Virus record (IMG/VR): IMGVR_UViG_3300030098_005177
Coordinates: 1-50,535 of that record
Source of the DNA: a virus
Taxonomy: Duplodnaviria > Caudoviricetes
DNA: 50,535 bases
Strand: one strand, 5' to 3'
Part shown: positions 2,090-24,072 of the stretch, one piece after another
Position numbering within the stretch: the first letter of the stretch is position 1
Layout: each line of letters begins with the position of its first letter
Program-made: the position numbers and the translations under genes
The notes under the pieces: generated by a model
Told to the model about the DNA's origin: nothing
Databases searched by the model: none
Seen by the model: the letters and a program-made list of their open reading frames with translations, nothing else

Positions 2090-2272
2090 ATGAAGCCGAA
2101 AACGGATGATTATGAAAAGCACAAAAGATATGTAGTGCATTATAAGATTGCTGATGAAAAAACGTATAAGTTCTTTGACAAAAAGGACCACGCAGAAACA
2201 TTTGCTACTGATGTTGGTGGCAAAATAACAGTGTACACTACACTAGAAAGAAAAGGTAATAAAAATGGCTGA
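2090..2272 (+). CDS. Hypothetical protein overlapping the Ubl gene
   Basis: ORF track 2039..2272; ATG 2090 with AAGGAG SD; overlaps the Ubl start by 8 nt. Confidence 0.65.
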   Translation: MKPKTDDYEKHKRYVVHYKIADEKTYKFFDKKDHAETFATDVGGKITVYTTLERKGNKNG

Positions 2273-2495
2273 TAATGTAACAACTTCAAGTAATGAAATA
2301 GTTATTGAATTAATGAGCGGAACTGCCGACTATCAAGAAACAAGGACGACAGCACGCACAGTAGGAGAACTAAAGCGAGAACTTGGATTAACAGGAACTA
2401 TTGCTGTAAATAGAGTAATTGCAACTGATGAAACTCCTTTAGAAGAAGGAAGTAAGGTAGTTTTCCGAGGATCAAATATGAAGGGTGGCTGTTAA
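2265..2495 (+). CDS. Ubiquitin-like (beta-grasp, MoaD/ThiS/Ubl-type) protein, pro-form ending GG-C
   Basis: 76 aa; TVGELKREL helix, IAVN strand and DETPLEEGSKVVF strand typical of beta-grasp; C-terminal KGGC; lies next to E2/JAB/E1 genes. Confidence 0.9.
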   Translation: MADNVTTSSNEIVIELMSGTADYQETRTTARTVGELKRELGLTGTIAVNRVIATDETPLEEGSKVVFRGSNMKGGC

Positions 2496-2523
2496 TCACG
2501 TCATTCTTATTAGTATAAGTTAT

Positions 2524-2650
2524 AATTGAAAGATATCAAATGGATACGGCAAAGCAACGTCACTCGCTACTATTCAGGTGCACTTGATGTACAGGATATG
2601 TAGAAATGAGCACTAATCCTTTAAGGATACGAAATTTTTATCTTTTAATT
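2524..2650 (+). ncRNA. Candidate structured RNA in the Ubl-E2 intergenic region
   Basis: 12-bp closing stem AATTGAAAGATA / TATCTTTTAATT enclosing nested stems (CTC/GAG, CTAC/GTAG, TATTC/GGATA, TCCT/AGGA). Confidence 0.4.
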
Positions 2651-2655
2651 TAATT

Positions 2656-2711
2656 AGCAGGGAGGGATCTTTAAATTGCCCGAGGGTATACATTTTTCTT
2701 CCCTCTCTGCT
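2656..2711 (+). promoter_or_regulatory. Long hairpin just upstream of the E2-like gene RBS
   Basis: AGCAGGGAGGGA / TCCCTCTCTGCT 12-bp stem with a small inner hairpin and an ACATTTTTC bulge. Confidence 0.55.
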
Positions 2712-2728
2712 TAACTTTAAGGAATAAT

Positions 2729-4462
2729 ATGTTACCAAAACTATTTAAATACGAAAGATTATCTGATGTAGGTGAGTTTTTCACAAAATTAGATAATTTT
2801 AATGTACAATATAACAGTGATGTAGATGTATATGAATCTGCAAGATGGAAAAATGGGACTTATAATAAGTTTAAAAAAATAGCAATAGATACCCAATATC
2901 CTCACTGGAAAAGTAAAAGAGGAGCCAATAAGGTACATAAACTCCTAGAAAGAAGAAATTGGAGATATGAAAACTTCAAAACACAATTAACTGAATTGAA
3001 TAATTTCCTAGTTGGATATAGATATAGAGGTTTAACCTTAAAAAATGAAGAATCTGTAACGGCTGGGAAAACATTTATTGAAGGGTATATTGAAAGTATA
3101 GAAAATATTAGTGATAATAATATTGATGCAGAAATAACTACATCTCCCTGGTTTAGTTCTAAGGATATAAATAAAATCCCTAATGATATGATAAGCTCTT
3201 TTCCTCAGGTGAATGATAAAGGGGAAATATATGAGAAATTATATAATAATGAATTAGATATAGATCGTAATTCTCCATCAAATTGGTACCTAAATATTAA
3301 GTTTGATTTAAGGGATATTATCCTTAAACCTACATATGGTGATAAACCAAGTATAGAAATACCTTTTGGAGATATTTACCTTTTGTTTACGATACCATTA
3401 TCAGGATTATATGATTTAAGTCGATCTAATGGCTCAACTAGATTAAGATCTAGTCTTATTAAGATAAAGCAATGGGCTTATGTCTATCCATACTTTCCTA
3501 AAGTCAAACATCCTTTTGTAACTACTACAAATAATTTTCATTATGAAAGACAGCCGTCAAGTTATAATGATTTAAATTCTTATTCTTTAGGGAATACGTG
3601 CTTTGGAGATTTGCACGATAGAATATTAATATTGATTGGCAAGGGTAGATTTGATGAAGTTATGTTTTATCTTCAAGAATGGTCATCAGCTTATCCTATG
3701 GATACAGTTAACCCATTAAATAATATATCTTATTCTACAATAATATCTGATAAAAATTGGCCAAGTATATATAAAGACAGGATAATAATTGTTCAAGAAA
3801 ATTGCAAAAGAAGAGTTGATTCTTACAAGCAAGGCGGGACTGAACATTATAATCCAGATATAGGAATTAATGAACAATATATAGCAGATAATTGCGTCAA
3901 TTGTGACTTAATAACTAGATGTAATGTCTTTAATGATTATTTATTATGGTCTAACCTTATCGCTAAGTATGAATGTAGCTTATCTAAAAAAGATATAGAT
4001 ATATTGAATAATTTCTATAAAAAGCACTTTAATAACGATAAGTATAAGGATGATTTTATTGAAGCATATGAAGTATTTGTAAATAATATAGCGGATATAG
4101 AAGATTCAAAGAGTTATTTTTGTAGCCTTTTCCAAGAGTTTGATGATATACCTTTTAAGATAGATAGATTTGTCAGTCAAGACTGTATAGATAATTTATT
4201 ATCTGGAACACTTGATTTGGAAGAATTTTGCTATCTGATAGAAGATTTGTGGCTAATTGTAGATAGGCTTTATATAATAGATGTATATCCAGAAAGAGTA
4301 GAAGACTTAGGGATTGATATAACTACTACAAGTCACGCAGATCTAGAAGAGTATCTAATCGCTTGGAAATTTCAAGATGGGGCTAATTATAAACCCTTTA
4401 GAGAAATATTTTTAAACAGATTTATCTCTAAATCAATTCACAAAATAAGGAGAAACAGTTGA
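2729..4462 (+). CDS. Large prokaryotic E2-like (ubiquitin-conjugating) domain protein with Cys cluster
   Basis: 577 aa; H261-P ... GNTC291FG E2-type active-site signature followed by two helices; C359/C389xxC392/C398 cluster; sits between Ubl and JAB. Confidence 0.7.
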   Translation: MLPKLFKYERLSDVGEFFTKLDNFNVQYNSDVDVYESARWKNGTYNKFKKIAIDTQYPHWKSKRGANKVHKLLERRNWRYENFKTQLTELNNFLVGYRYRGLTLKNEESVTAGKTFIEGYIESIENISDNNIDAEITTSPWFSSKDINKIPNDMISSFPQVNDKGEIYEKLYNNELDIDRNSPSNWYLNIKFDLRDIILKPTYGDKPSIEIPFGDIYLLFTIPLSGLYDLSRSNGSTRLRSSLIKIKQWAYVYPYFPKVKHPFVTTTNNFHYERQPSSYNDLNSYSLGNTCFGDLHDRILILIGKGRFDEVMFYLQEWSSAYPMDTVNPLNNISYSTIISDKNWPSIYKDRIIIVQENCKRRVDSYKQGGTEHYNPDIGINEQYIADNCVNCDLITRCNVFNDYLLWSNLIAKYECSLSKKDIDILNNFYKKHFNNDKYKDDFIEAYEVFVNNIADIEDSKSYFCSLFQEFDDIPFKIDRFVSQDCIDNLLSGTLDLEEFCYLIEDLWLIVDRLYIIDVYPERVEDLGIDITTTSHADLEEYLIAWKFQDGANYKPFREIFLNRFISKSIHKIRRNS

Positions 4463-5388
4463 AAGACGAAAATAATAAAGACAAAAAATTCTGGATTCAT
4501 CCAGATGATTTTGATAAAATAATACAGTATGCACAATCTTCATACTCACAATTTAAAGCTGAAATCGCTGGACAATTAATGGTAGTTGAAGATAAAGATG
4601 GAGACTTTATATTAAAGAATCCTGTTATCCTGAAGCAAACAGTATCTGGTGCAGAATGTGATTTAGATGCTGAAGAACTAGCAATTTATTATTCAACGAT
4701 AGCTGAAGAATATGGAACTAATGTTAGACACTGTTGGTGGCATAGCCATCATACTATGGATGCTTTCTGGTCAGGTACAGATAACTCTACGATATTGAAT
4801 AATCCTAGCAAGGATTTTACAGTAAGTTTAGTTATAAACCTTAAAAGAGAGTATAAGCTGAGGATACAATTCTTTAAACCATTTTTACACGAAGAAAACG
4901 TCACTTTAAATTTTCTTAAAACTGAGGATAAATCTAATCCTGAGATTGATGCTGAAGTGAAGAAATTGTGTCAAAAGGAAACTGCATTTGTATATTCAAA
5001 GCAATTGATAGCTAGAGGTCCTAATAATCAATATAATATATTTAATAGAGATGATGATTATGGAGGTTATGGAAACTATTATAATCATTATAGCAGTACG
5101 CTAAATAATGATGTTGATTTAAGTAAATTAGAGGCAAATATGCAAGATACGTTGCTTGATGAGATATCTGCTTTAACTGATAATTTTTATAATGAGCTAG
5201 AAAATAAGGAAGGATATAAGGAATGGAATAAATATGCTAAAAGAAAAAATCAAGAGATCTCTAAATATAATATCAAACTTATCAAGTTTAAAACTAATGA
5301 TGAATTTGAGACAGCTACTATGAGATATTGGCCAGAAGATTATATTCACAATATAAAGAAAGAAAAAAGTATATGCAATTTAATATAA
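4459..5388 (+). CDS. JAB/MPN+ (JAMM) metallo-isopeptidase
   Basis: E35 ... WWH95SH97HTMDAFWS105GTD108 = complete E-HxH-x7-SxxD JAMM motif; TTG start with AGGAG SD. Confidence 0.92.
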   Translation: MKDENNKDKKFWIHPDDFDKIIQYAQSSYSQFKAEIAGQLMVVEDKDGDFILKNPVILKQTVSGAECDLDAEELAIYYSTIAEEYGTNVRHCWWHSHHTMDAFWSGTDNSTILNNPSKDFTVSLVINLKREYKLRIQFFKPFLHEENVTLNFLKTEDKSNPEIDAEVKKLCQKETAFVYSKQLIARGPNNQYNIFNRDDDYGGYGNYYNHYSSTLNNDVDLSKLEANMQDTLLDEISALTDNFYNELENKEGYKEWNKYAKRKNQEISKYNIKLIKFKTNDEFETATMRYWPEDYIHNIKKEKSICNLI

Positions 5389-6038
5389 GAAGCAGTGGTT
5401 TAATTAATGACTTTGGAAATAAAATCTTCCATATACTTGGTTGCGGGGCTATAGGTAGTTCCGCAGCTACTCAATTATGTCGTATGGGTGTAGAAAATTT
5501 TATTCTATATGATATGGACAAAGTTGGAGTAGAAAATATTGGCGTAAGTCAATTTACTACTAAAGACATAGGAAGAAGCAAAGTTCAGGCTCTTAAAAGA
5601 CAATTACTTGATATAAATAGTAATATATCATCAGTTCTTTCTGATGGAGAATTTAAAGAGTATTTCAAGAAGTTAGATAGTCGAGACGTGGTTATTATCG
5701 GTTTTGATAATATGGCTATAAGAAAACAGGCTGCAGAGTTAGCATTATCACGCCCCAACAAACCGTTTTTATTAATAGACGGAAGAATGGGTGCAGAACA
5801 ATACCAACAATATGTTTTTGTTAATCCAAAATTAAAGGATTATATGAAATATTGGTATGATGATGACTCAGCATCTACTGAACCTTGCAATGCAAAAGCA
5901 ACGAGTTATTGTTCAAATATGAGTGGTAGCTTTATAGCAAATGCAGTTAAGAAAGTTATGAATAATGAAGGGTATAGTAAAGAATTTTTCTTTCAATTTC
6001 CCAATTATTCCTTGGGAAGATCAAGCGTTATTCATTAA
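5373..6038 (+). CDS. E1-like ThiF/MoeB family adenylyltransferase
   Basis: GCGAIGS loop, DMDKVGVENI, KVQAL, GFDNMAIR, DGRMG; candidate catalytic Cys in EPC172; likely start ATG 5373 (ORF track 5328). Confidence 0.93.
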   Translation: MQFNIRSSGLINDFGNKIFHILGCGAIGSSAATQLCRMGVENFILYDMDKVGVENIGVSQFTTKDIGRSKVQALKRQLLDINSNISSVLSDGEFKEYFKKLDSRDVVIIGFDNMAIRKQAAELALSRPNKPFLLIDGRMGAEQYQQYVFVNPKLKDYMKYWYDDDSASTEPCNAKATSYCSNMSGSFIANAVKKVMNNEGYSKEFFFQFPNYSLGRSSVIH

Positions 6039-14475: not shown

Positions 14476-17400
14476 TTAAACTAATCCTGTCCCAGGCGTA
14501 GTAATTTCCCGATCTTCTTCTTTTAATTTTGTTATCTTCTTTTGAGCCTGTAATAACGGGAATCCTGTAGTCTTCTCTAAAACTCTTATTGGGTTCTCTA
14601 TCAAATTACCCGGACCTGCTATATCTCTAGCCATACGTCCAAAAGGAAACATAGTCCAAACATAGTATTGAGACACTTTAGACCAATCGTCATCAACCAA
14701 AGCACGCATTGAGGAGGGCAGTAACCTAAAAACGGGAGGAGTCACCATTTGCAGCGGGGCTAACTGCTTAGGCCACTGCCCAAAAAATGCTCTATCCCTT
14801 TCAGTTTCATCACCGAAGATCCAGTCCGCGGTATCTTGAAACCAATTCCAAGGAGCAGGTAGAGCAGTCTCAAACAATGAATACGCAAATGCATTGGCTA
14901 ATGCAAATACAAAAATATCAATTTGCGCCGTTCTTACAAACTTATCATACGCTTCAGTTCCAGGTTTCAGCCCATACATCTTGGCTTCACGCCATATATC
15001 ATTTCTAAACCTAACAGCATTCCAGCTCCACAATTGAAAACGCGTCATAACCTTTCCTAATGCAGACCTTGCAAATGCAGGTCTAAAAGGCGCAGAATAT
15101 AAGAATTGAGTAGCCTTAACGCCCTTTTTAGCCATCTCTATTATATAAGGATGATTCGGGTCCTTTAAAGCGCCTCCAAGCTTATTCCAGGCATTAATAT
15201 AATGAGCCATAAAAGCATCACGCCTAATAGCACGCTCTGGTACAGTCATAAACTTAGCAGCAAATTGCATAATATTATCTTTGACTTTATATTTTTGAGC
15301 TATGTCCTTAAGCGTTGTTTCTGTCATTTTAGGGTTCTTTGTTAATTTATCTGCTACCTCTTGAATAAACTGCTTATTTTTAGCTTGTTTAAATTCTGCT
15401 TTCAACCCAGATTCATATAGCATATATTCTGGAACTACACCTGTTCTTTCTACGAAATCAGATACATCACTCATACTATTCCAGTCATTATTAATATTCT
15501 TTTTCAACCACTGGATACTACGAGCGTTTTTAAAAGAAGCCCATCCAGCTGATTGGATTGTATGTGCAGATCCACCAAAAATATTAGTAACCATACTTTT
15601 AGGATGAGCTAATAAAGAAGCCATTTGATATTGAGCTTCAAGATTCGCTATATTGCGTACTGTTTCTAAATCTGTTTTACGCAACTCAGAAGGCAAAGTC
15701 ATATCCATTAATCCGAGCTTTTCTTTTATTTTATCAATGCGTTCTGCAGACTTATTGTCAGCCCACCAAGCATATGCTGTGCCTTGGAGTTTTAAATTTT
15801 TATTATTTAAATAATGATCAGGAATATTAGTCGGATTACCCATAGCATCTTGAACATATAGCCTCATAAATTGATTCCAAGCATCAGCTTGATCTTTCCC
15901 TTGAGATTCATTAATGACTTTATACATTCTATCTAATATATTTCTAGAGAAAATTTGAGATAATTGCCTATAATATGCATTAGTAGTTGACCTAATATAA
16001 GTTTCAGGAACATTACTATCAACAGACCACCCTTCTATATGGCTACCACGAGTTTGCATACTTCCAGTTCCTTCGTTTGAAGTAAACCATTTTATCTTAT
16101 CTTTAGCATCAGCACGCTTGGCATCTATAGCCTCTATTGCTTCAGAATAAGCATTCCAATCATTAATGTCTTCTATTTTCCATTCACCTGTAACATTATG
16201 ATGTTTATGTATTAATTTTTTCAGCTCATTAGCCTTTAACTCTTTAGCCTTCTCTATATCTGTATGGAAATCTTTTAATGGAGTACTTTCAATTTTAGCA
16301 TACGCCTTTTTAAAGGATTCAGAAGCTTTCTTTTTATTAAAAAACATATGCGGCCAATAAAAATTATAATCTATCTTATTAGTTCTATTCTCAGATTTTT
16401 TTATAGCATTTCTAAGTTCTTTATACTCAGGTCGATTAGCTAAGTCTAGCATCATAGATCTAGCAACAGACTTTAATCCATCAATACCAAAATCTAAAGA
16501 CGGATTCTTTCCTTGTTTCCAGGCTGTAGTTAAGTGTCTAATAAATTTAGGAACATCTATAATAGGATTTCGTTTATTGGCAGGATCCAAAAACCCTTTA
16601 ATAAATCCACCCTCTTTTAATGCTAGATTAACTCCATCTGCATCAACTTTACCTGTCATTAGCCTATGCTGTTCTTTGAATATATTAGTATACTCTTTTG
16701 ATATTATATCTACAACTTCTGAACCAGTGTATGTCTTTACTTCTTTCCCAGGCAACTTAATATTATAATTTTTACTTAATAAGGCGCTATGCTCTTTAAT
16801 TATATCTTTATAAGCTTTAATATATTGCGCTTTTTCAAAAGGATTTAATTTGCTCGCCCAATTAGCATAACCGTGTTCTCTTTTCCTAACAGCTATTTGC
16901 CTTAATATTTCTCCATCAGGAATACTGTCCACAAATAGTAATCTTTCTTTAAGGTCTCTTATATAATATTCTGTTTGCTCTGTACTTGCATCGTTCATAC
17001 GAGCTATCCATTGTTGCGTTATATCTATATAATGAGTAGGAACTTTAATTACACCTTTTAATCTTCTTGCGTCTTTAGTAAAATAAAAGCCTTCTTGCTC
17101 CATTAGTTCAATATTATCACGCATCAACTCCCTATTAATAGTTTTAGGGAATAAGTACCAATGACGTTTTTGTAGTTTTTGTAAGCCTTTTTTATCAAAT
17201 ATTTGTTGCCAGATAGTTCCACGTTTTATATCTTTAAACCATTCGTTTAAAGCTCTAAATTCTTCTAAGTTAAGAGCATTAAGATCCTTGTTAAAAAATC
17301 CTCTTATTATTTCATTAATATTTTTACCAACTTTATTATTATAGGTCCTTATATTAGCTACCAATTCTGACATAACACTTCTCATATCTTTAGGTAAATC

Positions 17401-20400
17401 TGATATTTGAACACCTTTCTTGAGAGATTCATATCCTGTACTAGATTCTTCTAGAGGCTCATATATAGGATCTTCCAAAGGAGATTCTTTGGATTTAACA
17501 TAATCTTTCTGTACTTCTGCAGCTTTATCTGCAATTTTCCTTGCCTCTTTAAAGCTTGTCATAGACGTTGTTTCGGCCGCATCAACCATATCTATTAAAT
17601 CACCTGTTACTTTGTCTATATTTTTATCACTAATCTCACGAGACATATAGCCCAATCGTGAAGTAGATGTCTTTGAAGCACGCATCCTCATATCCCGTAT
17701 AAGGTTCTTTACTGGAACTAAAGAAGACTTCTTGCCAAGACCTTTTTCTAAAGCGTCAATAGCCTCTAGCTCACCACGCCTTAAAGAACCTAGCATCATA
17801 TGGTCAAATAGATCTTGCTCTTTTGTGCTAAGATTATTTTTAAATTTTCGAATTTGAGAGTCGATTATAGATTGATCTAGTTTACGAGAACGCTCCCCTG
17901 CTAATGCATATCTTAATTCTGGAGGTAAAGTTGCTAACTTTTCAGGACTTTTCTTTGCCCATTCCAATATAAAATCTCTTGATAGAGAGTCAATATCCTT
18001 TAAAGAAAGCGTGATATCTGATCCAGTATCTCTACCCATTAGCCAAGATTTATTCTTTAAATCTTCTACCTTTTTACTTATCTTTTCTACATTTGCTAAT
18101 TCCGATTTAGACATATCCCCGGTTATTTCATATATATTCTTCAGAGTAATCATATCTGTTAAATCATTATATAAAAAGTCTTCAGACAATCTGTTTAATT
18201 TTTCAAGAATATTCATTCTTTGCGTGACGCTTTTATCCCATTCGACAATATCTTGATTTTTTAAGCCAACTTTATTTTTCCAAAATATTTCATCACCAAT
18301 TTTTTTATTAAATTCAATCCCCAGCAAATTTTTAAAAATATCTTTATCGTTAGCTATTTCTTCTCTAAATCTAGGATTATGAAGCTCTTTGCTTAACGCC
18401 AATTCAATTAATTTTGTCTCTGGGACTTTAAAGCTTGATCTGCCTAATTGCCTTTTAAGCCACTTAAATTCATCAACATTTTTATTAACTTCAGTATATA
18501 GATCTTCAATCTTCTTTTTATCAATTCTTCTATAAATTGAATCAGTCCAATCTAATGGACCTAAAAGTCTGCCTGTTTTAGCTAAAGAGCTGCCCATCTG
18601 AGGCTCTGAAAGATTGAAAGCTCCTCCAGCCATATCTTGTATTTCAGACATAGTATATCGTCTGCCCTCAGCCCAATTACGTCCCCAAAATGCACTATTA
18701 ATATCTTTAAAGCTATTATATAAAGGGCTTTGTAAGTCAGATGCAGATAAATCAGCAGGATTAATATACTTAACCTCTTTACCCTTTTTATTAAATATTC
18801 CCTTTATCTTGAAATGGGAATCAAATAATTGCTTAAACCAAACTGAATGAGATTTCATACCTAATTCATCCATAGGGTCAGAAGCAAAAGCAACCTCAGC
18901 ACGTGCTACACCTCTAGCATAATCCCTAAAGCGCTTATCAGAACGCGGTTCTATTATTATCTGCAATTCTTCAACTTTACCGGTCTTTTCATTAAACCAT
19001 TGTAAAGGAATTACCTCTTCCTTAGCAGGCGACTTAAGAGCTGCAGCGTGAGCTGCTGCCATCATTTGCTTAGGAACTATAGCAGACATACCTAAGGCCA
19101 TACGTCCTTGTACAGTAGCCTCTGATATCCTCATACGCTCTGTAGGAGAATACATAGCTCCTAAAGAACCAAAGTGTGCTTTTTGTTTAGGGGTTAAATC
19201 TCCGCTAATAGTAAGCAAATCTCTAAAAGTTTTGATATTGTCACTTATTCCTAATTCTTTTTTAATATCAGAAGGAATTTCAGCGCTCTTATTATCACGC
19301 ACTATTGTACGTTTACCTACTTTTTCATAAAATTCTTCTTTATTGGCGTGAATAGCATCTTTCCAGGACTTTCTCATTCCGTGAGCTTCATCACCAAAAA
19401 AGAAAAACGCTTCGTCACCATCAAGATCTGCACCACCAAGAGCCCGCATTGATTTAGAATGTAATAAGATGCCGTGCCCATCTCTACCAGTAAATCCACC
19501 AAACTTTAATATATGAGCACCAGATATAGAATCCATAGGGACACGATAAACCACAGCCCTCAATACTTCTTCAGCCTCCTTTTTAGCAAATTCTAAATGG
19601 CCTTTTTCATAGGCTTCATAAAATTCTCCTAGGGTGGTATTTTCCATTCCTCTAATAGACGTTTTTAATTTCTGAGCCTTGTAAGCGTTATCTAAAAAGA
19701 ATACCGTACTATCTTTATTGGCACCATCTTTTGCATCAGCTAATAATCTTTTATTGGCTTTGTCAAGATTATGCTGCATAGCTAAATCATATGGGCGTAT
19801 TCTAGCAACACCTGAATTTAATACTTTAGGCTTAGTAGCTTCACGCACTATATAATTTCTAAAGGCCTGCATTCTCCAATCACGCATTTCTTTATGGAGA
19901 AGCACTGCTATAGGAGATTTTTTATCTTTTTGGGTAGAAATATATCTTAAGGCAGAATTAATCCTGCGTTCTGCTTGAGACTCGAAGTCTCCTAATTCTT
20001 GAATAGACCTGTCATATTGCTCTTTAGTTATCTCTCCTGATGCCACATCCTCTTTAAAAGATCTTCTTTGAAGCCTAAGCATCTCTCTATAAGCCATATC
20101 AGCAAATTCTGGGTTATTAGGATCCTTCATAGCATCTAAAATTTGAGTTATACCAAGTTCGTTAAAGTTTTTCCTTAAATTCTTTAATTTAGATAGACTA
20201 GGTTCAGCCTGATAGTCAAGCAGTAAATTGTTATATTTTTCACTGCCGTTAAAACGCTCACCTACCAGGGAATTAAATACATCATCAATAACTTCTCTAG
20301 GTACAGGAACTTTAGTATTCTCTAATAATGCTCCTAATAACTGTTTTGCTACCCTTTGAGGATGAGTCATCTCTGCACTATTCACTACAGAATAATTATA

Positions 20401-23400
20401 TTTAATATCAGAAGGGTTTAAGGAATATGATGATCCTTTAAATTTTGGGATATTTTTTTCTATATTCAATTCCCCAAAGCCTCGTCTTCCACGTTGCTTT
20501 ACTGCGCTCTCTTGCATATACATATGGAGATTAGCTTTTTCCATCGCCTCAGACATCTTGGGGCCAGCTTTATGAATCATATACTTACCAAGCAATGCTC
20601 CTAAAGGTTGACCTAATACATCGGACTCACCGCGTGATATTATAAAAGATTTATTTTGACCTGAAGAAGGCATCCCTGCATCTAGTAATAGCGCATCTAC
20701 AACCTTATCGTGCATCACTATTGCACCATCAACGTGTTCTCCTAATTGATTTGAATCCCTTAAGACCTCAGAAGAAAATAAGGGATCATAATCTTTATGA
20801 TTTTTATCCATTTTATTTCTAATGGATTCAGGCAAATCACGTATTATTGTATAATTTAATTTTCCATCGCCATTATAATCTAAACCTTCTTTTTCTAAAT
20901 TCTTTTTAGTGTAAACATTATCACCAGGAATTGCATCTGTAAACCATATTTGAGAACGCTTATTAAAAGCTTTGGAAGATGTTATAAAATCATTATTTTT
21001 AGAAGTAAATTCTTTTATAGAAGCATTTAAATCAACCCAATTCTCTGTTTTAAAACCATTCATCTGTAGGTCATATAGTAAATTAGATAAATAGGACTTC
21101 TTAAAATAATCTTTAGTCTTAATTATATTGCCTACGTTAAAATTAGCTATAAATTCTTTTTCAGCAATTTTATAATCATTAAGCATCTTATTGTCACGCA
21201 GGAGTTTATTGAATTTAGTAACGCCTAAAGTCTCAAAGTTTTTTAACCTAGGATTAAACTTTACAAAATACATTCTATCATTATCACCCTTACCGCCATA
21301 AAGATAGAAATCTTTTTCATCCGCCTTCCTCATAGCTCTGCCAATTAGATTATTATATTCTCTTCTAGCTTCCGCCATATTCTTTTTATTCTTGTAGAAT
21401 AAATTACTATTTAAATATCTGTTAGGAGATACATCAATAGCATTTCCATATTTATCTGTAGTAGTTATATGGTCTAATACGGATAAAGAGGTACCCTTAC
21501 CACCTTGTTCAGCAAAAGCAATTTGAATAGCGGTGTCAGGAGCAAGTAAATATTTTTTTTGACCAGCACCAGTAATAGGGGCCCTTGAATCACCCTCTTT
21601 ATTTAAAAATTTTAAACCATACTTATCATCAAGGCCTAAGACTATAACTTGAGAAGAAAGATTTCTTCTTGCCATTTGCTGCCTTAGTCGTCCTCTTGAT
21701 TCTCTATCAAGCTTTACTTCAAATCTTTTAGATAAGTCATTAGCCCATTGTTCAGATTTGTTTTCTACTGTATTTGTAGCATACTGCTCTTTTGATGTTT
21801 GCATATATTCAGCAATCTCAAATTGCTTCATCCTATTCATACTAGCTTCGCCTATATCCCAGGCATCTCTCATATATCTTTCTACAAACTTTAATGGACC
21901 GTGCCCAACTCCTCTGTTCCCTATATCTAAGTCTTCTTTACTATACGACTCCTCAATAGGCTCACCTTTTAATATTTCTCCAGTTACAACGTCATATTGA
22001 TAAATTCTTCCTTCATTAGCCTTCTCTGTATACTCAGCTTCTAAAGCATCACGTTCTTTTTCTAGAAGTTCTATATCCTTTTTAGATAACTTACTTTCCT
22101 TTAAAGAGCCTTTTGCTATTTTCCCCTCTATATTTTTAATTTCAGACTCTAAATGGTCTAAATAATTTTTACGAGTATCTTTAGTTTCAATTGCTTTCTT
22201 TATTTCAGCAGCTTCTGCCTTAGAAGGCTGTACTTTCTTTAACTTATAATTCTCCGTCACAAACTTAAGCACGGCTTCTTTAACGTGAAGTGGAATATCA
22301 GTACTTCGAGTCTTAGGGTTATAAAATCTAGTCCCAATAGCCGCCCATTCTTTTGGAGGTGGGGAAGGTTTTTCTATAGGTATGAAACGATTGGCTTTAT
22401 AGTCAAAGTTGTGCCATTTTTTTGAACTTACATCATAAACATTAATCTTTAAACCTTTATCTCGAGCCATCTGGACTCCCCATCCAGTTCCGCCTTTTAC
22501 AGTCCTTCCAATAAGACCTAGCTTCTGGCTTCTTTCTTTAGCAGGTCCAGTTAAATCTGCTGTAGACTTGACTATATCACCAACAGCATATACTGCAGAA
22601 GCGTTTTTAATTTGCCACCAATTCCTTCTAATAGCATTCCATCCACCTTGTGATAATCTTGATAAGTCTCTTCCAAGAGTTTGATTAGCTTGAGCTACAC
22701 GTGTATTGGCTGATTCAAGCTGACTTTCAGTTAACTTATGAGTTCTTAATCCTTTAGCATCAGCGTGACCTAATCTTTGGCCCCCTTTAAAACTGTAGTG
22801 AATCACAGGAACGCCCATATCAGTTAACGCGCTTCCCCATAATTGATCAGAGCCTTTTGCTCCACCAGACATTACTATCGCTTTAAATTTTTTGAGAGTC
22901 TCCTTAGTTGGTACGTATGTAGTTTCACCAGTACCTTTTTCAATCCGAGTTTCGAATCCTTCGATATCTTGCTTAACTTCTTTTCCAACTTTTTCAGGGG
23001 CAAACTCCTCTCCTAAATATGAAGATACATAACGCCTCATAGCTGGATCCCCATACCCTTTAAATTCAGTACCAGGTATACCATAAGCAGCGTATTTTTT
23101 TATAAGTGGCTTAATCTCTGAGGGCAATTCAGCCCAATCTGGATGCAATTCAGGATCTCTATGGACATCCATTTCCTTATCAGTTTTAGCCATCTTATCC
23201 ATTTTACCAATAAATTTTCTAGCTTTAGCTACAGTCCAAGATGTTTCTTGGCCTCCAAAGTATGCTCCCATAACATACTCATATATTTGCTCTGGAGTAG
23301 TGGCACCACGCATAGTGGTAGGCAGTCCCATAAATAGCGATCCCGACAGAGCTCTCACTCCCTTTTGCATCTTTTCACTGCCATCAATTTTTATATTTCC

Positions 23401-24072
23401 TATCAATCTAAATACAGCCCCTGCCTGAGCACCACCAACAAATGAATCTAACATATGGTCTACACCACCTTGCCAAGATGAAATTGCACTTGCAGTACCT
23501 AAATGGAACGCTCCCTCCATAATATGGCGTGCTTTATGTCCTGTTAGCATATTCGCAACAGTATTTGCAGCATCAGATCTTTTTGAATGTACAGTATTTA
23601 AAACTGGTTTAACTACTGATTTTGCTTTTTTGGTAAGGAAATTAGCACCCATCATAGGTACTGACTTATTATTTAATGCAGCGGCAACTTTAGCTAAGTT
23701 TTTAGCTCCAACCAATTTAGCTGGACCGGCAACTATTCCAGGCGCAAAACCAGCTAAGTGGCCTAAATTTCTAAATATCTGTTCGTATTCATTATCGGCA
23801 GGATCAGCAACATTAACAGTAGTAAAACCTTCAATAAATCCAGCACCAGCCTGTTTAATTGCATCAATTAAATCAAACTCACCTTCGTAAAAAGGTACAT
23901 TATAATAATGAGCGTGCTGTCTAATTGCATCTAATCTATCTTGATAAAGGTTAGGTGTATTATTATATTGCTTTATTAGTTGTCTAGTAGTACTTTCGTC
24001 CCAACTAGGTTGAAATTGCTCCTGTGTCTGCTCCTTAGGTGCCCCAGGATTTGCTGATGTAAATAGTGACAT
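14476..24072 (-). CDS. Giant virion-associated two-barrel RNA polymerase (crAss-like vRNAP) with SLOG domain
   Basis: 3198 aa; YRVP...GGAD1549LDGD catalytic loop; upstream HVDG, KSFI, LGKY, QESAVK motifs; SLOG motifs SGGAKGSD, RRN, GGTGW at aa ~400-530; encoded after the ejection proteins. Confidence 0.85.
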   Translation of the reverse strand: MSLFTSANPGAPKEQTQEQFQPSWDESTTRQLIKQYNNTPNLYQDRLDAIRQHAHYYNVPFYEGEFDLIDAIKQAGAGFIEGFTTVNVADPADNEYEQIFRNLGHLAGFAPGIVAGPAKLVGAKNLAKVAAALNNKSVPMMGANFLTKKAKSVVKPVLNTVHSKRSDAANTVANMLTGHKARHIMEGAFHLGTASAISSWQGGVDHMLDSFVGGAQAGAVFRLIGNIKIDGSEKMQKGVRALSGSLFMGLPTTMRGATTPEQIYEYVMGAYFGGQETSWTVAKARKFIGKMDKMAKTDKEMDVHRDPELHPDWAELPSEIKPLIKKYAAYGIPGTEFKGYGDPAMRRYVSSYLGEEFAPEKVGKEVKQDIEGFETRIEKGTGETTYVPTKETLKKFKAIVMSGGAKGSDQLWGSALTDMGVPVIHYSFKGGQRLGHADAKGLRTHKLTESQLESANTRVAQANQTLGRDLSRLSQGGWNAIRRNWWQIKNASAVYAVGDIVKSTADLTGPAKERSQKLGLIGRTVKGGTGWGVQMARDKGLKINVYDVSSKKWHNFDYKANRFIPIEKPSPPPKEWAAIGTRFYNPKTRSTDIPLHVKEAVLKFVTENYKLKKVQPSKAEAAEIKKAIETKDTRKNYLDHLESEIKNIEGKIAKGSLKESKLSKKDIELLEKERDALEAEYTEKANEGRIYQYDVVTGEILKGEPIEESYSKEDLDIGNRGVGHGPLKFVERYMRDAWDIGEASMNRMKQFEIAEYMQTSKEQYATNTVENKSEQWANDLSKRFEVKLDRESRGRLRQQMARRNLSSQVIVLGLDDKYGLKFLNKEGDSRAPITGAGQKKYLLAPDTAIQIAFAEQGGKGTSLSVLDHITTTDKYGNAIDVSPNRYLNSNLFYKNKKNMAEARREYNNLIGRAMRKADEKDFYLYGGKGDNDRMYFVKFNPRLKNFETLGVTKFNKLLRDNKMLNDYKIAEKEFIANFNVGNIIKTKDYFKKSYLSNLLYDLQMNGFKTENWVDLNASIKEFTSKNNDFITSSKAFNKRSQIWFTDAIPGDNVYTKKNLEKEGLDYNGDGKLNYTIIRDLPESIRNKMDKNHKDYDPLFSSEVLRDSNQLGEHVDGAIVMHDKVVDALLLDAGMPSSGQNKSFIISRGESDVLGQPLGALLGKYMIHKAGPKMSEAMEKANLHMYMQESAVKQRGRRGFGELNIEKNIPKFKGSSYSLNPSDIKYNYSVVNSAEMTHPQRVAKQLLGALLENTKVPVPREVIDDVFNSLVGERFNGSEKYNNLLLDYQAEPSLSKLKNLRKNFNELGITQILDAMKDPNNPEFADMAYREMLRLQRRSFKEDVASGEITKEQYDRSIQELGDFESQAERRINSALRYISTQKDKKSPIAVLLHKEMRDWRMQAFRNYIVREATKPKVLNSGVARIRPYDLAMQHNLDKANKRLLADAKDGANKDSTVFFLDNAYKAQKLKTSIRGMENTTLGEFYEAYEKGHLEFAKKEAEEVLRAVVYRVPMDSISGAHILKFGGFTGRDGHGILLHSKSMRALGGADLDGDEAFFFFGDEAHGMRKSWKDAIHANKEEFYEKVGKRTIVRDNKSAEIPSDIKKELGISDNIKTFRDLLTISGDLTPKQKAHFGSLGAMYSPTERMRISEATVQGRMALGMSAIVPKQMMAAAHAAALKSPAKEEVIPLQWFNEKTGKVEELQIIIEPRSDKRFRDYARGVARAEVAFASDPMDELGMKSHSVWFKQLFDSHFKIKGIFNKKGKEVKYINPADLSASDLQSPLYNSFKDINSAFWGRNWAEGRRYTMSEIQDMAGGAFNLSEPQMGSSLAKTGRLLGPLDWTDSIYRRIDKKKIEDLYTEVNKNVDEFKWLKRQLGRSSFKVPETKLIELALSKELHNPRFREEIANDKDIFKNLLGIEFNKKIGDEIFWKNKVGLKNQDIVEWDKSVTQRMNILEKLNRLSEDFLYNDLTDMITLKNIYEITGDMSKSELANVEKISKKVEDLKNKSWLMGRDTGSDITLSLKDIDSLSRDFILEWAKKSPEKLATLPPELRYALAGERSRKLDQSIIDSQIRKFKNNLSTKEQDLFDHMMLGSLRRGELEAIDALEKGLGKKSSLVPVKNLIRDMRMRASKTSTSRLGYMSREISDKNIDKVTGDLIDMVDAAETTSMTSFKEARKIADKAAEVQKDYVKSKESPLEDPIYEPLEESSTGYESLKKGVQISDLPKDMRSVMSELVANIRTYNNKVGKNINEIIRGFFNKDLNALNLEEFRALNEWFKDIKRGTIWQQIFDKKGLQKLQKRHWYLFPKTINRELMRDNIELMEQEGFYFTKDARRLKGVIKVPTHYIDITQQWIARMNDASTEQTEYYIRDLKERLLFVDSIPDGEILRQIAVRKREHGYANWASKLNPFEKAQYIKAYKDIIKEHSALLSKNYNIKLPGKEVKTYTGSEVVDIISKEYTNIFKEQHRLMTGKVDADGVNLALKEGGFIKGFLDPANKRNPIIDVPKFIRHLTTAWKQGKNPSLDFGIDGLKSVARSMMLDLANRPEYKELRNAIKKSENRTNKIDYNFYWPHMFFNKKKASESFKKAYAKIESTPLKDFHTDIEKAKELKANELKKLIHKHHNVTGEWKIEDINDWNAYSEAIEAIDAKRADAKDKIKWFTSNEGTGSMQTRGSHIEGWSVDSNVPETYIRSTTNAYYRQLSQIFSRNILDRMYKVINESQGKDQADAWNQFMRLYVQDAMGNPTNIPDHYLNNKNLKLQGTAYAWWADNKSAERIDKIKEKLGLMDMTLPSELRKTDLETVRNIANLEAQYQMASLLAHPKSMVTNIFGGSAHTIQSAGWASFKNARSIQWLKKNINNDWNSMSDVSDFVERTGVVPEYMLYESGLKAEFKQAKNKQFIQEVADKLTKNPKMTETTLKDIAQKYKVKDNIMQFAAKFMTVPERAIRRDAFMAHYINAWNKLGGALKDPNHPYIIEMAKKGVKATQFLYSAPFRPAFARSALGKVMTRFQLWSWNAVRFRNDIWREAKMYGLKPGTEAYDKFVRTAQIDIFVFALANAFAYSLFETALPAPWNWFQDTADWIFGDETERDRAFFGQWPKQLAPLQMVTPPVFRLLPSSMRALVDDDWSKVSQYYVWTMFPFGRMARDIAGPGNLIENPIRVLEKTTGFPLLQAQKKITKLKEEDREITTPGTGLV

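Follow-up and report, generated by a model that had tools for sequence, protein, structure and literature searches.

Prokaryotic ubiquitin-like protein (Ubl) conjugation has so far been studied as bacterial antiphage defence, in Bil, type II CBASS, and Bub systems. The genes of Bil run in the order Ubl, E2, JAB, E1 (PMC11601596), and the Ubl, BilA, is reported to have a conserved glycine followed by up to nine non-conserved residues (PMC10557695), with overhangs of two to nine residues described for 12 BilA homologues (10.1101/2023.09.04.556158). In E. aridi, the JAB peptidase BilC cuts BilA between Gly97 and Ala98 and also cleaves conjugates, and the extra residue of BilA sits where ATP must bind in the E1, blocking the ATP site (PMC10557695). 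The same report describes eukaryotic Ubl precursors as bearing variable residues after Gly-Gly (GG), which are trimmed by deconjugating peptidases (PMC10557695). In type I Bub, BubCD is described as cleaving the BubAB fusion, and the JAB peptidase frees the Ubl (PMC11601596). Extra residues are also reported for two biosynthetic proteins: QbsE (thioquinolobactin) ends in GG-CF, with trimming attributed to the JAMM protein QbsD, and CxnE (chuangxinmycin) has ten extra C-terminal residues, for which JAMM trimming by CxnF has been proposed (PMC5925218). On the phage side, release of Ubl domains by JAB peptidases was predicted in 2006 for tail-assembly proteins (PMC1779556).

We analysed a virus record of 50,535 bases (the window, meaning this whole stretch of DNA), estimated to be 98% complete, from a tailed marine phage that is the source of a 76-aa Ubl precursor. 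As a precursor, the protein adds one more example to a known kind, and the phage-borne cassette in which it lies is a variant of the known four-function kind that is previously undescribed in the literature searched. The best reading, and one that we consider likely, is that the phage Ubl precursor is trimmed by a JAB peptidase, activated by an E1, and passed to an E2-like protein.

A four-gene cassette in the early region of a marine phage genome

The letters at window positions 2478-2495 are ATG AAG GGT GGC TGT TAA and encode M-K-G-G-C-stop, as the earlier note had read them. They close an ORF on the + strand (2265..2495) with an ATG start and a product of 76 aa ending in FRGSNMKGGC, which we assign as a Ubl precursor on the basis of the ORF, a weak ThiS match, and its homologues. 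The codons of Gly74-Gly75 (2484..2489, + strand), which are invariant in 26 homologues, encode the predicted mature C-terminus. The following TGT (2490..2492, + strand) encodes Cys76, a one-residue cap that is variable or absent in relatives and is predicted to be cleaved, and the stop codon of the ORF occupies 2493-2495 (+ strand). Contigs from all four public DNA runs that were compared cover the Cys76 codon, with no letter differences across positions 2200-2800, one of these runs being possibly the window's own source. The exact 76-aa protein is on record on 19 contigs.

Up to about 14.4 kb, the + strand encodes, among other products, an annealing protein of the Sak4-like type, a primase-helicase, an HNH endonuclease, and an exonuclease; genes for the terminase, the portal, the major head protein, and the internal virion proteins lie on the - strand. 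The cassette is situated in the early/replication region of phage genomes. Among the virion genes is an ORF of 3198 aa (14476-24072, - strand) for which the PHROG search returned a single match, DprA-like and limited to residues 391-554 (E 1.3e-10), and beside it lies a gene for a 1405-aa protein with a weak match to an internal virion protein. No match emerged from 50,697 deposited phage records, searched at both the nucleotide and the protein level.

The cassette comprises genes for the Ubl, a 577-aa E2-like protein, a JAB peptidase, and an E1, in that order. We examined 39 loci besides the window, some of which represent the same contig twice or in two collections (L001/L010, L003/L013, L007/L011, and L008/L001). 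For the locus scan, the 78-sequence alignment of the 577-aa protein was too diverged to serve as a seed, and a subset of ten sequences was used. Gene order and strand are identical in all loci: the Ubl gene lies upstream of the gene for the E2-like protein in 34 of 34 loci with room for it, the JAB gene lies downstream in 34 of 34 with enough flank, and the E1 gene lies downstream in 31 of 31 with room. The Ubl and the 577-aa protein received no name from the Pfam, PHROG, PADLOC, or NCBIfam libraries. The six significant BFVD structure matches are all unnamed viral proteins, and two pattern scans across bacterial and archaeal genomes (one genome for each species), using one or two short peptide patterns, found no relative. 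The cassette thus looks restricted to phages, a claim for which the genome scans rest on very few peptide patterns. Full-text searches of a collection with few subscription journals, judged by titles and abstracts, turned up no paper on such a phage-only cassette.

Immediately upstream, a 60-aa ORF (2090-2272, + strand) ends within the start of the Ubl gene, and the overlap of 8 nt suggests translational coupling. A homologue of this ORF is present in locus L005, and in the database protein P0007 a homologue and the Ubl form one in-frame fusion, in which Gln takes the position of the L005 stop. No family matched the 60-aa ORF, which may belong to the cassette as its fifth gene in the clade of the window.

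The residues after Gly-Gly vary between relatives

A profile search of a 5.8-billion-protein collection with the Ubl returned 16 proteins, namely the window's own and 15 homologues. Fifteen of the 16, the window's own included, keep K or R followed by GG and one to three further residues, which are C (four proteins), K (five), NQ (two), and Q, DK, NS, and KVV (one each). The remaining protein, P0014, diverges from the family before GG and has a different end, which may reflect a frameshift or a truncated contig. A script run on the window and the fetched loci found 36 Ubl ORFs, among which 22 C-terminal regions are distinct. Among these, NQ follows GG five times, K three times, and C twice, four ends have a free GG, and N, I, Q, KVA, KVV, KEVK, and EAK occur once each.

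In L021 (637-1188, + strand; a single contig), the Ubl continues directly after KRGG into a Lys-rich linker and a helical extension of about 100 aa, which has no Pfam match. By analogy with ubiquitin fusions or BubAB, the L021 product is best described as a putative fusion precursor; since 103 further residues follow KRGG, its GG would be usable only after cleavage.

Only three columns, L36, G74, and G75, are invariant in the 26 aligned Ubls, whose mean column identity is 23%, which argues that conservation of GG is more than chance. Conversely, the residues after GG vary between relatives, which points to a precursor tail and argues against a special redox or CysO/Mec-like role for them. Judged from the sequences, this pattern marks the GG carboxylate as the probable functional end of the Ubl and the extra residues as a tail that would be removed. 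Non-conserved tails of zero to four residues, besides the one 103-aa extension, occur beside a JAB gene at 34 of 34 loci, as in precursor Ubls. Cys76 itself looks like one of many interchangeable caps, that is, an ordinary precursor tail. A Cys cap is also present in a relative with only 49% Ubl identity to the window, and ordinary descent alone would often account for its retention at that distance.

A beta-grasp fold for the Ubl is putative, and its matches to named families are weak. Pfam ThiS matches the window Ubl at E 0.0051 with 17.8 bits, under the cut-off of 22.5, and reaches E<=0.01 in one of 26 Ubl members, again under the cut-off. The best solved-structure profile match of the family is MoaD at E 1.3, the family profile matched nothing significantly among PDB sequences, and a six-frame search of the phage with the ThiS model gave no match. 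In the Atlas clusters nearest the Ubl, ThiS is found in 10-11% of members, which we take as a lead only. In common with Ubl/ThiS/MoaD proteins, the phage Ubls have a C-terminal GG (26/26) and an E1 gene nearby (downstream in 31/31 loci).

A large protein with an E2-like core and a single-domain E1

The gene following the Ubl (2729..4462, + strand) encodes the 577-aa protein, which consists of an N-terminal helical part, a UBC (E2)-like core at about residues 110-360 of the predicted model, a four-Cys cluster, and a variable helical C-terminus. A word-based search found only two relatives, and a single-protein scan of viral contigs found none. An exhaustive profile search of 1.84 billion cluster representatives was needed, which yielded at least 194 clusters (50% identity) at E<=0.001, 87 at E<=1e-10, and 30 at E<=1e-30. 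In the 78-sequence alignment, G43, C291, G293, W318, and P329 are invariant, and H261, P262, L330, N331, C359, C389, C392, and C398 are at least 90% conserved. The invariant C291 (codon at 3599-3601) is preceded, as in E2 enzymes, by an HPN-like motif, H261-P262, which is conserved in at least 90% of the 78 sequences at a spacing of 29 residues. This spacing is longer than that between the H-P motif and the catalytic Cys of classical E2s.

A structure model built from four sequences was unusable (pLDDT 46), and one built from 78 sequences reached pLDDT 82 and pTM 0.73. Foldseek against the PDB gave no match to this model at E<=0.001. A structure search run independently of Foldseek returned UBC, RWD, or UEV domains in 10 of 50 rows, covering residues of about 100-360 with Z 3.9-4.7, and a second-look structure comparison of the Foldseek candidates returned E2 enzymes in 33 of 50 rows, in alignments that span 118-137 of about 150 residues at an rmsd of 3.6-4.4 A and a Z of 3.5-4.7; all E2 matches here thus have Z below 5, where, according to the tool's own warning, unrelated folds commonly score as well. 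Among the 78 members, Pfam searched down to E<=10 brought up neither an E2 family nor any other that recurred, the family profile matched nothing significantly among PDB sequences, and the Atlas gave a weak separate lead from the 577-aa protein to Prok-E2_D. In the model, the H-P motif follows the last strand of the aligned stretch, and the invariant Cys lies just before a helix. A UBC-like core is suggested by the coverage of nearly the whole E2 domain, always by the same stretch, with the H-P motif and the invariant Cys in it. The modelled protein is termed E2-like, a description by structure alone and weak in absolute terms.

The four conserved cysteines C359, C389, C392, and C398 (at least 90% of 78 sequences) sit just after the E2-like core, within residues 359-398, and may form a metal-binding module. 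The part of the protein that is conserved family-wide ends near residue 420, and the variable C-terminal helical part would fit target recognition.

The E1 gene (5373..6038, + strand), which overlaps the JAB gene by 16 nt, encodes a 221-aa protein of the ThiF/MoeB/UBA5 type that matches PF00899 ThiF at E 2.4e-21 (76.4 bits, cut-off 28.1). Its best solved relatives are UBA5 (5.9e-12), MccB, UBA6, and ThiF. All 15 aligned sequences consist of a single adenylation domain of 216-224 aa with no separate Cys domain, and they share the GCGAIGS nucleotide loop of the ThiF Rossmann fold as well as D47, D112, C172, and C180. From its place after a P-C-N motif in the sequence, C180 (codon at 5910-5912) would be the thioester site.

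A sulfur-carrier system would combine these proteins differently: a ThiS/MoaD-type Ubl, trimmed by the JAB in the manner of QbsE/QbsD or CxnE/CxnF, would be activated by the E1 to a thiocarboxylate, the Cys-rich protein of 577 aa, as a novel sulfurtransferase, would use it in thiolating a nucleic acid or small molecule, and no protein would be tagged. The sole sequence hints for the Ubl do point to ThiS (E 0.0051) and MoaD, the E1 is a single ThiF-like domain, the QbsE precursor, with GG-Cys-Phe, is reported to be such a carrier (PMC5925218), and the conserved four-Cys cluster could bind a metal or an Fe-S centre. However, the four cassette proteins and the neighbouring ORFs scanned showed no CysM-like, rhodanese, cysteine desulfurase, or PP-loop family, the modelled core of the 577-aa protein resembles E2 enzymes rather than sulfurtransferases, and the Ubl-activating enzymes UBA5 and UBA6 are among the best solved relatives of the E1. 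We therefore regard a sulfur carrier as unlikely and prefer a Ubl that is passed to the E2-like protein.

The JAB peptidase and the cap

The JAB/JAMM metallopeptidase (309 aa; 4459..5388, + strand) is encoded by a gene whose start overlaps the stop of the E2-like gene by 4 nt. Its motif, E...H-x-H-x7-S-x2-D, is formed by E35, H95-S96-H97, S105, and D108 (motif codons 4741-4782), and all six residues are invariant in 17 of 17 aligned sequences. The window protein matches Prok-JAB at E 0.012 with 15.9 bits; 11 of 12 JAB members match at E<=0.01, and that of L039 (26.6 bits) lies above the 25-bit cut-off. Together, the JAB, the E1, and the E2-like protein each look competent.

The JAB gene, with its catalytic residues invariant, is also present in four lineages whose Ubl ends in a free GG. 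Since the peptidase is intact where no cap exists, trimming would not be its only job. The proposal of the earlier note, a Ubl made as a pro-form that needs the JAB, is thus borne out in part: the sequences and the analogy with described precursors favour a precursor with a GG to free and a JAB at 34 of 34 loci, and they speak against trimming as the sole role of an enzyme that is kept beside free-GG Ubls. The same four lineages, by indicating a role besides trimming, leave room for a phage JAB that only deconjugates, with the cap trimmed by a host carboxypeptidase or tolerated by the E1. We consider this quite improbable because in Bil one enzyme is reported to do both jobs and an extra residue to block ATP binding by the E1 sterically (PMC10557695), and because the 103-aa extension of L021 needs an endopeptidase that cuts after GG. 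Cap removal by the phage JAB is thus the reading we retain.

Comparison of homologous phage Ubls at the position after GG, the check proposed with the pro-form, showed that Cys is not conserved: relatives have no residue there, or C, K, N, I, Q, NQ, NS, DK, KVV, KVA, EAK, KEVK, or the 103-aa extension. Redox or timing control by the Cys, which had been suggested earlier, was rejected on this variability, as the tail changes or is absent under the same enzymes. CysO/Mec-like cysteine release, suggested alongside it, was rejected likewise: the caps vary, and no sulfur-transfer or cysteine-synthesis enzyme is recognisable in the cassette. That the cap functions in the clade of this phage alone, as a redox- or metal-sensitive maturation lock or as a cysteine released in CysO/Mec style, is very unlikely: Cys follows GG in four of 16 database homologues, including the relative with 49% identity in the Ubl, and a Gly-Cys bond is the substrate of the mycobacterial JAB enzyme Mec+, yet other clades with the same enzymes have the other tails listed or no cap, one shared residue at 49% overall identity is often expected from drift alone, and the cassette encodes no cysteine-synthesis partner.

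A structured spacer between the Ubl and enzyme genes

A structured spacer of 233 nt (2496..2728, + strand) lies between the Ubl stop codon and the start of the E2-like gene, the first of the enzyme genes. Its predicted fold has an energy of -57.4 kcal/mol (z -3.7), and none of 200 shuffled sequences was as stable. A hairpin at about 2657-2710 ends approximately 20 nt before the start codon of the E2-like gene. Spacers of 67-346 nt are present in all 19 distinct gaps listed, and in 12 of these 19 the script reported a hairpin of about 50-90 nt whose end lies 5-28 nt before the E2-like start; besides the window, these are L001, L005, L015, L016, L021, L024, L025, L031, L032, L034, and L036. The 5' arm of the hairpin is G-rich and the 3' arm C/U-rich, the arm sequences differ between loci with the pairing kept, and a U-run follows several of the hairpins. 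Rfam identified no family in the window, spacer included. The hairpin may work as a leaky terminator or attenuator, setting the ratio of Ubl to enzymes, or it may be bound by a protein.

Proposed pathway

In the pathway that we propose, K-G-G would be the only functionally fixed feature of the Ubl C-terminus, and Cys76 a disposable cap. We infer the cleavage, the enzyme responsible, the thioester relay, the conjugation, and the target as follows. A cut after Gly75, most likely by the JAB encoded two genes downstream, would remove Cys76, a step suggested by the comparative tail pattern and by published precedent. The steps assigned to the E1 and the E2-like protein, and reversal by the JAB, derive from domain content. 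The minimal, homodimer-type E1 would adenylate the freed carboxylate of Gly75, and the Ubl would probably be carried as a thioester via Cys180 of the E1. It would then be transferred to Cys291 of the large E2-like protein and on to a target, which the variable C-terminal part of that protein would choose. The JAB would probably also reverse conjugation. The structured spacer, lying before three translationally coupled enzyme genes, may raise the ratio of Ubl to enzymes.

Comparison with known systems

With CysO/Mec+, the phage system shares a small GG protein ending in Gly-Cys and a JAB enzyme, which in mycobacteria hydrolyses that bond. There, CysM forms the cysteine on the carrier after translation, and no codon specifies it. 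In contrast, the phage Cys is encoded and is replaced in relatives, and the cassette and the neighbours scanned yielded no CysM-like enzyme, nor any CysM-type sulfhydrylase with a sulfur donor next to the carrier.

QbsE/QbsD and CxnE/CxnF, as reported, share with the phage system a small GG protein with extra residues and their proposed removal by a JAMM protein before ThiF-type adenylation. They are sulfur carriers in biosynthetic clusters without an E2-like protein, whereas the phage loci always have one, with an invariant Cys. The L021 Ubl, with 103 residues after GG, parallels the larger precursor of Bub; that system, unlike the phage cassette, uses serine/oxyester chemistry and fused proteins, and the candidate catalytic residues of the phage enzymes are cysteines in four separate proteins. 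The variable residues after GG are a likeness to eukaryotic ubiquitin, NEDD8, and SUMO, and UBA5, a minimal E1, is the best match to the phage E1 among solved structures. The phage system differs from these in its remote sequence similarity, in its viral/prokaryotic setting, and in having no recognisable E3.

Bil resembles the cassette in gene content: as far as it is described in the sources cited above, it has the same four genes in the order found in all phage loci, and both Ubls can bear a one-residue cap after Gly (Ala98 in Bil and Cys76 in the phage). We nevertheless rejected the cassette as a member of Bil, whose E1 has a tandem inactive-active-CYS architecture, since the phage E1 is a single ThiF adenylation domain of 221 aa in the window and a single such domain in 15 of 15 sequences. 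The E2-like protein, at 577 aa, has additional helical and four-Cys parts, neither it nor the Ubl matches any PADLOC model, and the cassette lies in an early/replication region and was not found in the two pattern scans of bacterial genomes.

The narrow finding is that the Cys cap is an ordinary, interchangeable precursor tail. More broadly, the cassette brings these four functions to a phage, in a form unknown to the family libraries. If it conjugates, it would be a compact cascade, with an E1 of 221 aa and a K/R-G-G Ubl that would leave a standard diGly remnant after trypsin, and it would offer a direct route to asking what a phage gains from protein tagging. Tentatively, we envisage a complete, phage-restricted Ubl conjugation cascade, expressed early or during replication and tagging host or phage proteins, with a precursor Ubl, a giant E2-like protein that has a built-in metal-binding module and a fast-evolving end for target recognition, a JAB that acts as maturase and deconjugase, and a minimal UBA5-like E1; this fuller picture is a plausible possibility that we hold with some reserve. 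If true, the phage cascade would be the viral counterpart, and possibly a counter-weapon to or the evolutionary source, of Bil-type bacterial defence.
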